Of a stretch of DNA of 64,000 bases, positions 1,625-63,943 are shown one piece after another (position 1 is the stretch's first letter; the number at the start of each line of letters is the position of its first letter). A model generated the notes under the pieces. The model had not been told where the DNA came from, did no database searches, and was given only the letters and a program-made list of their open reading frames with translations. A program made the position numbers and the translations under genes. The DNA comes from Octopus vulgaris (taxonomy: Eukaryota): the NCBI GenBank assembly GCA_951406725.2, contig OX597815.1, positions 198,338,001 to 198,402,000 of the forward strand, read 5' to 3'.

Positions 1625-2215
1625 TGACTCGATCCTCACTCGGACTAAACTTTTAGGTTCATCCATTTCCGTAAGATTCGTTAGTGAGGACCACTACCAA
1701 AGCAGATATCGGGCAATCCAGTCTGTCAGTATATATGCATTTACCGGAGAAATCAATGGATGATTTAGCAGAATGCACATGCGTCTACAACAAATTAATA
1801 GAAACAACTAAGCGCAATGCGATTCCATAAAGGAAAAATTCCTTCATTACTAAATGAGACGACGAGTGCCGAGGCACCTACATTGCTGTTTGTGTTGATA
1901 TTATTTTATACACATTAGTATTCCGCTAACTCATCCACAGATTTCTATCTTAAATGCTTATATTCTGACAAAGGGAAATTTCCGGCATCTGCCGAGCGAG
2001 CGGTCCTCCCTGACGAAGCCTGCGGAAATAGACGAAACAGATCGTTTAGTCTTAGTGATTTTCGAGTTGGTGGTGGGGTAGTTACAATCCCTGTCAGCAT
2101 GTGTGTATACATATGCGCGCTTCCTACAGTATTAAGAGAGTATTGTACCTATTATTCTAGCAATGTAGTTGCCTTTACTTACCTACATATTCAGGTACGT
2201 ATATACAGAAATATA
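1625..2215 (+). mobile_element. Element next to (TA)n with degenerate HHR-like motif at 2010-2051
   Basis: CTGACGAA-gcctg-cggaaa-tagac-GAAAC-agatcgtttaGTC; stem I does not pair well. The block starts directly after (TA)n; the right boundary is approximate. Confidence 0.4.
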
Positions 2216-3340
2216 ATATAAACAAGGAAATAGAAAGTAAAGGGATTTGGAAGTAATGGCTTTTATATCTAACTTTACCATTTAATGCCATCTCCCAACT
2301 CTGCATGTAGCCGAAATATTTCGAAGATTTTGACAATATATATATATATATATATATATATATATATATATATATATATATATATATATGTATGTATATA
2401 TGTATATATATATATACATGTATATATGTATATCTATTTATATATATATATATATCTCTCTATATATATATGTATATATGTATATATATATATACATGTA
2501 TATATGTATATCTATTTATATATATATCTCTCTCTCTCTCTCTATATATATATATATATATAAATGTGTGTGTATGTCCGTGTGCATGTTTGTGTACATG
2601 TATGTGTGCGCATACGTACAAACATTCATATATATATATATATATATATATATACGTTTAAATATTTACATCAGTGTCAGCCTCTCTCTCTCTCTCTCTC
2701 TCACTCTCTCTTTGTCAACACACACACACATACTACTTACATGGTTAACCTAAAACATCGAGTGCTTTTCTTTCGTTATTTATACCTGTGAATCTCCATT
2801 CACTTTTCCATCCACCTATTCAAGACCCTAATTTTTTCCGTTTACTTTTTTCACTATGATCTGATAGTGTTATAGGTTTCTTAGATTTCGATACAATATC
2901 AATCGATATTGTTATATCGAGATAGAGATGAAAAGCGTTCATACATCATTTCCGCAAGCATATTATGTGTTTTGCTAATCATGTAATATTATGAAAAACA
3001 CAATTATATATATATAAAGTATTTCTCAAGTGAGTGCACGTGCATCAATGGTGGTATTATCGCTATTATTCTATGATTGTTGTATTATCAAAACGTATTT
3101 GTTTGAACGATATTGTTGGTATAACGCTACTCTCTGTTGTATATCGCTTGCAAGATTCGCTTATGCTTCAATCTTTGTAATTAAATCATGTATTCTATGA
3201 ATACTAGTTGTGGCAGACAATAAGTATATATATATATATATATATATATATATATTTCAACAATTGAGGGTAAAATTAATTAATTATTAATCAATTTCAC
3301 CAAGTGTTCAGTATGCAAAGGGACCATTTAAGGCGAATTC

Positions 3341-3727
3341 AAATTATTACATTATATAAAAGGGCTTAGTAAAATAAATTACTTCGCCGCATACTGAACT
3401 CATTAGAAATAGCAGCTAAAAAACTTTTTTAAAAGCTATTTCTAATACTTAAAGAGAATCTCTCTCATATATAGCGTTTGCTTAATTCAACTCACAAAAG
3501 TTTGGGGGTAAGGACATTAAAAAATCAAATGCTTAGCATTTGATTTTTTAATGTCCTTACCCCCAAACTTTTGTGAGTTGAATTAAGCAAACGCTATATA
3601 TGAGAGAGATTCTCTTTAAGTATTAGAAATAGCTTTTAAAAAAGTTTTTTAGCTGCTATTTCTAATGAGTTCAGTATGCGGCGAAGTAATTTATTTTACT
3701 AAGCCCTTTTATATAATGTAATAATTT
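3341..3727. repeat. Palindrome, 193-bp arms with 1-nt spacer, within a TA-flanked element (about 3257-3727)
   Basis: Centre aaatgct-t-agcattt at 3534. Arms match by eye out to 3341/3727. The left arm extends a further ~85 bp to the (TA)n at 3256. Confidence 0.95.
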
Positions 3728-3891
3728 TTATATATATATATATATATTCACGTGTATGTGTATGTATTTGCATGTGCATGGGTGTATGTGCACGTCCGTG
3801 TGTGTAGATAGTTCGATTGATGGACATACAGACACACATATGAAGAAATACACACACATATATATATATATATATATATATATATATATAT

Positions 3892-4603
3892 GTTTAACAA
3901 TTAAGGATAATCTCTTAATAAGGGATCTTAACAAGAAATTATCGGGTAGCTAGCGTGAAAACCTCATAAAAGAAAAGAATCCGAAAATAATTTTTTTCTT
4001 TTGAACAAATTAATTATATCTATATTGTATAGAGGGCATTATTACACATAAATGCCTCACACTAGGAGGGACAAAGTCATTACTACCAAAATTATACTAA
4101 TCATACCCAAATGCAGTTTTTCAAAGCAAGACATTTAAAAAATGAATTTAGTTCTGTATCACCGTGATTTCACATTCAACTTACGTCTAATGATCGTCAG
4201 CAGAACTGATTCTGAACACATCATAAATAAACTACCAACCTTACGTAGCGAAGACGAACAGACAACTGCTCACTCCGGCCAAGCACATGGAATGTTTATA
4301 AATCATATATCCGGTAAATGGCGGGCTTTTTACGAACTGCATGTCGGGTAATGAAAAGTATTTCGGAATAAGTTTAACAATTAAGGATAATCTCTTAATA
4401 AGGGATCTTAACAAGAAATTATCGGGTAGCTAGCGTGAAAACCTCATAAAAGAAAAGAATCCGAAAATAATTTTTTTCTTTTGAACAAATTAATTATATC
4501 TATATTGTATAGAGGGCATTATTACACATAAATGCCTCACACTAGGAGGGACAAAGTCATTACTACCAAAATTATACTAATCATACCCAAATGCAGTTTT
4601 TCA
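3892..4603 (-). mobile_element. HHR-bearing non-autonomous element, 1.48 tandem copies of a 480-bp unit, inserted in (TA)n
   Basis: 3892-4123 is identical to 4372-4603 (232 bp, period 480). The HHR lies in the intervening 248 bp, and (TA)n abuts both ends. Confidence 0.85.
4150..4207 (-). ncRNA. Type I hammerhead ribozyme (minimal, Penelope/retrozyme-like), core intact
   Basis: Minus strand reads AGUUCUG-CUGACGA-U-CAUUAGAC-GUAA-GUUGAAUG-U-GAAA-UCAC-G-GUGA-UA-CAGAACU. This gives a 7-bp stem I, canonical CUGANGA and GAAA boxes, stem II with a GNRA loop, quasi-palindromic stem III and an AUA cleavage triplet. Confidence 0.85.
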
Positions 4604-62900: not shown

Positions 62901-63198
62901 TCGTTCGTCCATTATTGCTTTCTCGTTTATTAGGTTATGAATCGCTTTCCTCATTCCTTGTATTAATATTTTTCGTCACCTTAGGCCCCTTAAAATCACT
63001 TGTTTGCTTGGTGCTATTTATTTCTGCCTCTTTCCGTGTGTGTGTATATGTGTATATGTGTATATATATATATATATATATATATATATATATATATATA
63101 TATATATATATATATATATATATATATATATATATATACATATATATATATGTGCGTGTGTGTATGTATATGTATATATATATATACATATATATATA

Positions 63199-63599
63199 AT
63201 AAATATTAGGGAATAAATCCAAATTTACAGGGAAAAAATCAGATTTAGGATTAAATCCAATTTTATAGTAAAATATTATAAAATATTATTAGAGACAAAA
63301 CCACTATTTTGCAAAACAAACAAGGAAAGACTTAATCAATACATAAAATTTTAATAAATAGTCAAAAAACCGCCACTACAATTGTTTCTTGTCTTGATCG
63401 ACAATCTTCAGTGGATTCAATAAGTCAGTTTCAAATTATGAAACTGACTTATTGGAAGTCCACCTGAAGATTGTCGATCAAGACAAGAAACAATTGTAGT
63501 GGCGGTATTTTTGACTATTTATTAAAATTTTATGTATTGATTAAGTCTTTCCTTGTTTGTTTTGCAAAATAGTGGTTTTGTCTCTAATAATATTTTATA
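63199..63599. mobile_element. TA-flanked element with fold-back palindrome 63277-63599 carrying two divergent HHRs
   Basis: Centre gtcagtttca-aatta-tgaaactgac; ~160-bp arms with a few indels. The left arm extends to the (TA)n at 63198. Confidence 0.92.
63460..63502 (+). ncRNA. Canonical-core minimal type I hammerhead ribozyme
   Basis: CCAC-CUGAAGA-UUGUC-GAUCAA-GACAA-GAAA-CAAUUG-UA-GUGG: perfect stems I and II, palindromic ACAAUUGU stem III, GUA triplet. The mirror copy on the minus strand at 63373-63414 lacks one C of stem I. Confidence 0.9.
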
Positions 63600-63614
63600 C
63601 ATATATATATATAT

Positions 63615-63943
63615 AATTAGTGAATGGAAGAAATGGAGCTGAACGAAGATTCTACAGAATTCCTTTTATTACATTATACACATGTTTCAAAGGCCACAAA
63701 TTTCCAAATTCTGATTGAATAAGGATACCATATTGCAGCTTTCTCTTCAGGAAAATCCAGGAATTACGATGTCCAAACAACACAAAGGCGCAGCAAGCAA
63801 CACGAACAAGAACGCTCCCTAGGAGCCCATGAAGTGGGGGTAAACTCCAACCGTGTTTTTTCTGCTGTGATTTTTGCTACCCAGGTATCGGTTAAACTTT
63901 TGAATAATATGTAACAAGATAATTCATCTTTCCATTTCAACAA
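63615..63943 (-). mobile_element. TA-flanked element with degenerate long-stem-II HHR (63676-63754)
   Basis: Minus strand reads CUGAAGA-GAAAGCUGCAA-(loop)-UUGUGGCCUUU-GAAA-CAUG-UG. Stem II and the ACAUGU palindrome are intact; stem I and the triplet are decayed. Confidence 0.55.

Follow-up and report, generated by a model that had tools for sequence, protein, structure and literature searches.

Hammerhead-like motifs in a 64-kb stretch of the Octopus vulgaris genome belong to nine repeat families with features of Penelope-like elements

The window analysed here is a 64-kb stretch of the Octopus vulgaris genome (contig OX597815.1, positions 198,338,001 to 198,402,000), taken from a 2.80-Gb assembly of 227 contigs (GCA_951406725.2). 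It is dense in microsatellites, has a GC content of 33% and contains no long open reading frame (ORF) of note. An initial annotation had proposed that it carries about 12 type I hammerhead ribozyme (HHR) folds, in non-autonomous micro-elements that depend on Penelope-like elements (PLEs) and colonise (TA)n tracts. We found that the 12 motifs are genuine and belong to genome-wide repeat families: each of the 12 noted positions is the low coordinate of such a motif, with an offset of at most 4 bases, and DNA searches resolved the motifs into nine repeat families, here called A to I. Their copies are as follows, in window coordinates.

1626..2175, plus strand: family H, an old element with an inverted partial copy on its upstream side; the degenerate HHR begins at 2006
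3892..4602, minus strand: family B, a closed 480-nt tandem unit present in about 1.5 copies; the HHR at 4151-4206 is intact and canonical
8274..8712, minus strand: family C, a 461-467-nt tandem-type unit; HHR at 8401-8455, with G12C in this copy
18617..18835, plus strand: family D, a short 3' fragment accompanied by an inverted partial copy; HHR at 18694-18731, C4 core
40660..41990, minus strand: family G, an older element (~80% identity) of more than 1 kb, upstream limit approximate; degenerate HHR at 40725-40768
42852..43034, plus strand: family A, a discrete unit of 190 nt flanked by TA tracts; HHR fold at 42909-42944, core CUGUAGA (A6U)
47766..47917, minus strand: family I, a 5'-truncated copy in inverted orientation; its minimal HHR (47853-47898) has one mismatch in stem II
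47925..48000, plus strand: family I, a tRNA-like head as read from the sequence, with A-box and B-box resembling an RNA polymerase III (Pol III) promoter, then a trinucleotide microsatellite spacer
48230..48390, plus strand: family I, the HHR-bearing 3' part of this short interspersed nuclear element (SINE); broken HHR at 48292-48337
51726..51896, minus strand: family A, a second copy; HHR fold at 51815-51850, A6U
63207..63437, minus strand: family E, an inverted copy with the longer tail; HHR at 63373-63415, stem I broken
63432..63600, plus strand: family E; intact canonical HHR at 63460-63502
63616-63846, minus strand: family F, the 5'-truncated pseudo-long terminal repeat (pLTR) of an autonomous PLE that is Hydra-type by its motifs; HHR at 63675-63753, stem I broken in this copy
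63840-63943, within 63616..63943 (minus strand): family F, an inverted piece of the tail

Folds, copy state and abundance of the families

Comparison of motif frequency with shuffled sequence, a check that the annotation had proposed, gave a clear excess. A strict type I descriptor found two canonical matches in the window and none in 30 local dinucleotide shuffles; allowing one core change gave five matches against a shuffle mean of 0.25, and a four-core descriptor covering known or observed cores gave five against none in every shuffle. Across the genome, the pattern CTGANGA-N10-30-GAAACGTH had 21,847 matches, compared with 1,347 for the reversed pattern, a 16-fold excess. The proposed density of one motif per 5 kb is a figure for the window only, as three patterns searched genome-wide returned ~52,000 motifs after background, or roughly one per 54 kb. 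The four-core descriptor detected three intact folds in 80 kb of pre-chosen round-number stretches and nine in 300.6 kb of flanks, and copies of the nine families numbered 23 in 380.6 kb of other sequence. Because both motif and family-copy densities are lower in the genome and in other sequence, we regard the window as richer than average.

The window copies themselves are in mixed condition. Only 2 of the 12 motifs are intact with a canonical core, namely 4151-4206 (family B) and 63460-63502 (family E). The motifs at 42909 and 51815 form the fold with U6 in the core, those at 47853 (one mismatch in stem II) and 18694 (C4 core, stem I frayed) are near-intact, and the remaining six are broken (2010, 8401 with G12C, 40725, 48292, 63373 and 63675). 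Helix pairing had been asserted for each motif; it is clear in all nine family alignments, but not in every window copy. Rfam models did not recognise the motifs: RF00163 scored 14.5 bits at 4151-4206, below the gathering score of 34, the family I motif at 47853 gave no HHR match, and a scan of the whole window gave none among the matches listed (150 of 438), which were mostly to microsatellites and microRNAs. A repeat search of the window likewise returned mostly microsatellites.

Family alignments were built from DNA searches that gave 30 to 2,888 first-look candidates, of which up to 40 were scored for each family, a procedure biased toward window-like copies. No significant blastn match was found among the nine units, in agreement with the roughly nine sequence-unrelated families first proposed, and the full type I fold is restored at the family level in all nine alignments. 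The family folds have the three helices and the CUGANGA / GAAA / NUH core of a minimal type I hammerhead, with departures in family A (U6) and in the window subfamily of family D (C4), and the motifs fit the published consensus of metazoan PLE HHRs. Intact folds were counted among the copies fetched for B (23/25), C (13/25), F (19/20), G (7/20), H (2/17, with 3 of 20 H loci lacking the HHR region) and I (10/20), and for E they were read from the alignment (20/20). The U4C change is common in family D, in family J (a relative of family A described below) and in one PLE; both U4C and U3-A8 are known active natural hammerhead variants (PMC3088659).

The dimer-type, palindromic stem III described for the window proved general, with a self-duplex in all nine families, and only family H forms a stem III hairpin, the other 8 of the 9 forming none. 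For family F the palindromic type was borne out but the letters were not: its stem III is ACAUGUGU, a palindrome with G-U pairs, and not ACAUGU. Compensatory changes were found in F and H. Among Hydra-type copies the HHR region is 79-95% identical, compared with 42-86% for the upstream untranslated region (UTR), and stem III alternates between CATATG, CATGTG and CACGTG, all of them self-complementary, with the 16 copies divided 7, 6 and 3 among the three hexamers. In family H, a paired change is present in the palindrome, which is 10-12 nt long and accompanied by a GUC triplet.

Family A has the core CUGUNGA, with 15,954 exact genome matches for U6 against 184 for A6, and 23,734 matches (~24,000 copies) when stem II is left free. 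In the first 100 of 16,679 matches to a pattern with an unconstrained core, read by eye, position N7 was U in 44, A in 25, C in 20 and G in 11, whereas every other core position varied in at most 4. The N7 base follows subfamilies, and U6 is kept across subfamilies down to 74% identity, a comparison that retained only 6 of 30 central A copies. Since N7 is free while the other letters are fixed, we take this pattern as a sign of selection on the hammerhead core. Three points weigh against that reading, namely that no compensatory change in stem II occurs in the matches listed, that few source lineages may underlie the counts and that a published A6C hammerhead variant cleaves slowly. The 5' boundary of family A is tight in 29/29 copies, chosen for covering the query, and head-to-tail arrays are rare, with 7 exact junctions. 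A sister family, J, has the canonical A6 and is divided into U4 and C4 subfamilies (loci L014, L030, L042, L070, L252, L257 and others); it has no copy in the window.

Insertion anatomy, tandem units and autonomous relatives

Fixed 3' ends and variable 5' truncation characterise the families, and an inverted partial copy is often present. Families C, E, F and G end at either of two 3' termini: the shorter falls at a TA-like patch inside the element, and the longer adds ~80-160 nt; no optional 3' tail was seen for A or D. This PLE-type anatomy had been anticipated from the window, and the combination of pLTR, inversion and tail is the pattern published for PLEs. In seven families most copies have a (TA)4 tract no more than 200 nt from the 3' end, namely A (27/29), C (21/24), D (19/19), E (19/19), F (19/19), G (18/19) and H (9/15), the background rate being 0.19, and all 8 distinct ends of B arrays adjoin TA. 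The proposed colonisation of TA tracts is therefore upheld in eight families but fails in family I, in which 2/19 copies have (TA)4 within 200 nt of the 3' end and 1/19 within 20 nt, and for which the nearest TA tract in the window is ~2 kb away.

Several insertions are arranged around a shared tract. Tail-to-tail pairs of the same element lie across one TA tract at 42700-43260, where a truncated family A copy (43044-43125) faces the copy at 42852..43034, and at 8174-8313, where a short family C copy (8174-8213) faces the main one; such pairs would fit nicking of both strands of a palindromic target. At loci L162, L170 and L006, the insertion point of family A is the 3' TA itself of a G or D copy, and thus the elements nest in each other's tracts.

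Families B and C are non-coding tandem units. Family B forms head-to-tail arrays of up to about a dozen units with a period of 478-482 nt, its window copy is 97-100% identical to the best full-length copies on other chromosomes, and cleavage is predicted between 4157 and 4156. Family C has a period of 461-467 nt (unit 462 nt). With one type I HHR in each non-coding tandem unit, B and C match the sequence definition of non-LTR retrozymes; such units were not seen for E, F or I and were only rare in A. The B unit folds well relative to shuffles (z = -6.3). It occurs in contigs of 18 sequencing runs, none of them listed as RNA and 14 only guessed to be so, although contigs cannot separate a circle from a tandem array. 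In one run, a 510-nt contig closes the 480-nt unit, but because the identical joint exists in tandem DNA we do not count it as evidence of a circle. Two candidate partners were rejected: upstream of a B array (L048/L243) lies a GIY-YIG fragment, but it is set apart by TA tracts and belongs to a different, decayed PLE, and a PLE fragment near a C copy (L080) is a separate insertion with its own ends.

Family F leads directly to an autonomous element. At locus L254, the F repeat stands on either side of reverse transcriptase (RT) and GIY-YIG frames, which are split by two frameshifts. Their translation has RW(K) and DKT motifs and an endonuclease (EN) with CxxC and CxH but without CCHH; the locus also has a canonical HHR and a (TA)n insertion, as expected of the Hydra clade, and by these motifs the parent of family F is probably a Hydra-type PLE. 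Atlas features class the L254 protein as RT-like (score 0.96-0.97). With Pfam there was no RT or GIY-YIG match for the L254 proteins, a PDB sequence search with the Hydra-type RT returned nothing meaningful, and the CxCX5C linker was not seen in L254. A search with the Hydra-type EN gave 16,046 first-look candidates in the genome, with ORFs reaching 934 aa, and an F-type HHR closes 15 of the 16 additional Hydra-type 3' UTRs that were fetched. Because F repeats flank the RT and GIY-YIG frames and nearly all of these UTRs end in this HHR, we interpret the window copy as a truncated autonomous element. The original view that all families are non-autonomous micro-elements is not supported, as F is the pLTR of an autonomous Hydra-type PLE and G extends more than 1 kb upstream.

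The genome does contain intact PLEs encoding RT and GIY-YIG domains, as the annotation supposed. A young Neptune-type PLE has many intact 781-aa ORFs and a second upstream frame of 330-480 codons (L231-L236, L242), some Neptune-type relatives have a U3-A8 HHR-like motif at the 3' end (read by eye), and another PLE has a C4 HHR in both pLTRs. Among the PLE loci collected, however, an autonomous PLE with the 3' end of a family was found only for F; there was none for A, B, C, D, E, G, H or I. In the window itself, tblastn searches with two PLE proteins gave no match.

The remaining TA-associated families are represented by fragments or older copies. D, E and H are short 3' pieces for which no parent elements were found. 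The D pattern has 7,997 genome matches, about half of them U4 among the 100 matches listed; E copies are 98-99% identical; and H matches have 67-98% identity, mostly 70-80%. Family G has a canonical core at the family level, and no ORF was found upstream of it. A PLE fragment near a G copy (L174) was rejected as its partner, being a separate insertion with its own ends.

Family I is organised differently. A tRNA-like head is followed by an (AAT)n-type spacer, the minimal HHR and a 3' terminus to which a tail of ~35 nt may be added. Exact junctions between the head and AAT number 3,561 genome-wide, and by eye its HHR makes up about half of the first 100 matches to the generic genome pattern. 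Its flanks are mixed AT-rich DNA, with (TA)n in about 2 of 100 (by eye). Direct repeats of at least 8 nt (8-13), which we read as target-site duplications (TSDs), occur at 11 of 14 loci with an inverted partner, whereas a control gave repeats of at least 8 in 1; the other 5 of the 19 loci lacked an inverted partner. ARAGORN found 0 tRNA genes in the window, and Rfam gave no tRNA match at the one family I locus searched. No sequence beyond the tail was common to 100 flanks among the matches listed, and so no longer parent is seen. Judged by these features, family I is a tRNA-headed SINE with TSDs and without TA targeting, and its tail, inversion and HHR type suggest that it may be mobilised by PLEs. 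Our literature search found no published description of a PLE-mobilised SINE. Names in use for tRNA-derived SINEs of octopus are OK, OR1 and OR2.

Other features of the window merit mention. The TA-bounded element at 3256-3727, which contains a perfect inverted repeat of 193 nt, is a member of a tenth HHR family; the window copy is truncated immediately downstream of the ribozyme, and the full motif is present in loci L077, L139 and L247. A TA-bounded repeat at 28480-28619 (minus strand), with a CTGAAGA and a GAAT box, recurs in at least 7 other loci and has no clean hammerhead fold. Inverted repeats of 341 nt (99%), 1.3 kb apart and TA-bounded, lie at 22620-24578 and possibly form a DNA transposon; their arm sequence had no match among the fetched loci. 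The near-perfect TA-centred palindrome of ~260 nt at 9127-9410, similar to a miniature inverted-repeat transposable element, was found only at its own window locus. Short reading frames at 19600-20315 and 56751-57230 (both minus strand) resemble, by their motifs, decayed pieces of CR1-type long interspersed nuclear elements. Very abundant SINE-like repeats, often adjoining TA tracts, occur at 28231-28840, 29480-29915, 43208-43427, 52386-52816 and 58061-58440.

Proposed mobilisation by PLE proteins and the alternatives

Our results support a model in which the motifs mark copies of nine repeat families likely mobilised by PLE proteins, among them one terminal repeat of an autonomous PLE and four non-coding units, with most copies decayed after they inserted. 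We give this reading a probability of roughly 80%. In this model, the GIY-YIG EN of Neptune- and Hydra-type PLE proteins would nick (TA)n, and for family I the nick would fall in ordinary AT-rich DNA and yield 8-13-bp duplications. The PLE RT would then start inside the RNA, often at a short internal TA-like patch. Together, these steps could account for 3' ends that are fixed, tails that are optional, 5' truncation, inverted partners and tandem arrays of more than one unit. In the source lineages the HHR would be held under selection, cutting slowly as a dimer through its palindromic stem III, and in B and C cutting would free unit-length RNA, possibly circularised. Family structure, copy numbers, the anatomy of the insertions and the tie between F and its ORFs are observed directly. 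The pairing of each family with the PLE that moves it, the priming at TA-like patches within the RNA, circular B and C intermediates and any catalysis are steps that we infer; dimer cleavage at low rates, TA targeting by linker-bearing ENs and internal RT initiation come from the literature.

Several observations count against this model. Low or no cleavage is reported for many such motifs (PMC4209133), 8 of 9 Xenopus dimers are reported to be inactive (bioRxiv 10.64898/2026.07.22.740005), and HHR cleavage is dispensable for PLE insertion in vitro (PMC11167929). Activity is expected to be reduced by the core change in family A, the largest family counted, and no compensatory change occurs in stem II of that family among the 100 matches listed. 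The family C unit folds only weakly better than shuffles (z = -1.9). An autonomous partner was found for 1 of 9 families, from a small share of the genome's PLEs.

It is tempting to go further and to propose that family A is an active natural CUGUNGA hammerhead, maintained by purifying selection across many successive subfamilies and amplified to ~24,000 copies, and that family I is a Pol III SINE parasitising a Penelope-type enzyme, but as read from sequence features we hold this extension to be doubtful. If it were true, the octopus genome would rank among the densest reservoirs known for ribozyme variants, and PLEs would underlie much of the octopus 'SINE' fraction that is now unclassified.

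The alternative that survives best is that the hammerhead fold persists because of a non-catalytic function, for instance dimerisation of the RNA or its recognition by PLE proteins, and that cleavage is dispensable, especially in family A. The fixation of A6U across A subfamilies as far as 74% identity, the predominance of U6 over A6, the common U4C change in D, J and one PLE, and the finding that HHR mutants still insert in vitro (PMC11167929) are all consistent with such a role. Nonetheless, a core in which N7 is free and the other letters are fixed is the pattern expected of a catalytic core, the U3-A8 and U4C variants are active in nature, and related mussel retrozymes cleave and circularise (PMC7229834). 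We therefore view a purely non-catalytic role as possible, though on the unlikely side.

We consider it improbable that all nine families are simply 5'-truncated ends of autonomous PLEs, without separate non-autonomous lineages. This explanation holds for F. Also in its favour are the more than 1 kb by which G continues upstream and the state of D, E and H, each a short 3' fragment with an inverted partner, and most single minimal HHRs are read as truncated PLEs in PMC4209133. It is refuted for B and C by their closed non-coding tandem units and for I by the tRNA-like head, and it fits poorly with family A, given its tight 5' boundary and rare head-to-tail arrays. Chance folding in AT-rich, repeat-rich DNA, although in keeping with the six broken window copies, a strict-descriptor match at 22234 that looks like chance and Rfam scores under the cut-off, is refuted by the shuffle and reversed-pattern controls and by the restored folds and compensatory changes at the family level, and can be dismissed.

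Significance and comparison with known systems

What appears to be new here is the host and the variants. Elements of this class have been described in other animals, and the literature covers minimal HHRs within PLEs, retrozymes and their PLE origin, and insertion targeted to TA (PMC4209133, PMC7229834, PMC8557442 and bioRxiv 10.64898/2026.07.22.740005). In cephalopods, 235 Rfam hammerhead-1 matches are listed for the giant squid genome. An octopus repeat annotation from 2026 (PMC13282606) describes 190 PLE families, with Penelope-like elements at 6.83% and SINEs at 11.6%, and the word 'hammerhead' has no match in its main text and supplement. Our literature search found no published description of octopus HHR families, which Repbase, Dfam or the octopus transposable-element library may already hold, or of an A6U hammerhead. 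The role of the PLE hammerhead is puzzling, in that it is conserved, yet weak in vitro and dispensable for insertion in one reconstituted system. The octopus families offer a natural test set: the canonical J and A6U A sister families, the U4 and C4 subfamilies, the tandem family B, which is very young and coexists with intact PLE proteins, and a SINE whose insertions bear the marks of PLEs. A comparison of cleavage across them would tell whether selection targets catalysis or fold, and part of the octopus repeat content, in the Penelope-like and SINE fractions, would be reclassified.

The motifs resemble the metazoan PLE HHRs of Cervera & de la Pena 2014 (PMC4209133) in the CUGANGA core, the extra base before stem II, the palindromic stem III and the U3-A8 variant, and in occurring as thousands of mostly single motifs per genome, in molluscs (Lottia, Crassostrea) among others. 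The ~52,000 motifs from our three patterns exceed the 2,000-9,000 quoted there, although the counting methods differ; no octopus appears in the supplement searched, and the A6U core is not described in the parts seen. L254 shares with the Hydra-clade PLEs of Craig et al. 2021 (PMC8557442) the RW and DKT motifs, the C-terminal EN with CxxC and CxH but not CCHH, the canonical HHR and the (TA)n insertion. It departs from them in that the CxCX5C linker was not seen, and the large octopus Hydra-type expansion is a further difference; the two octopus rows (of 4) seen in the supplement of that paper are Naiads.

Families B and C are comparable to non-LTR retrozymes in their non-coding tandem units with one type I HHR each, and B also in its predicted self-paired RNA, a PLE origin being proposed for such elements by Cervera & de la Pena 2020 (PMC7229834) and Li, Clavereau & Pollet 2026 (bioRxiv 10.64898/2026.07.22.740005). 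At 480 and 462 nt, the units of B and C exceed the 170-400 nt given for non-LTR retrozymes, and cephalopods are not covered in the text seen of either paper. The nearest precedent for family I is Schistosoma Sm-alpha, which, together with Sj-alpha (PMC2770079 and PMC6765202), likewise has a tRNA-related, Pol III-type head followed by a hammerhead and reaches high copy number. Unlike these elements, however, family I combines a minimal PLE-type HHR with a microsatellite spacer, an optional 35-nt tail, inverted partners and 8-13-bp TSDs, and it is dispersed rather than tandem.

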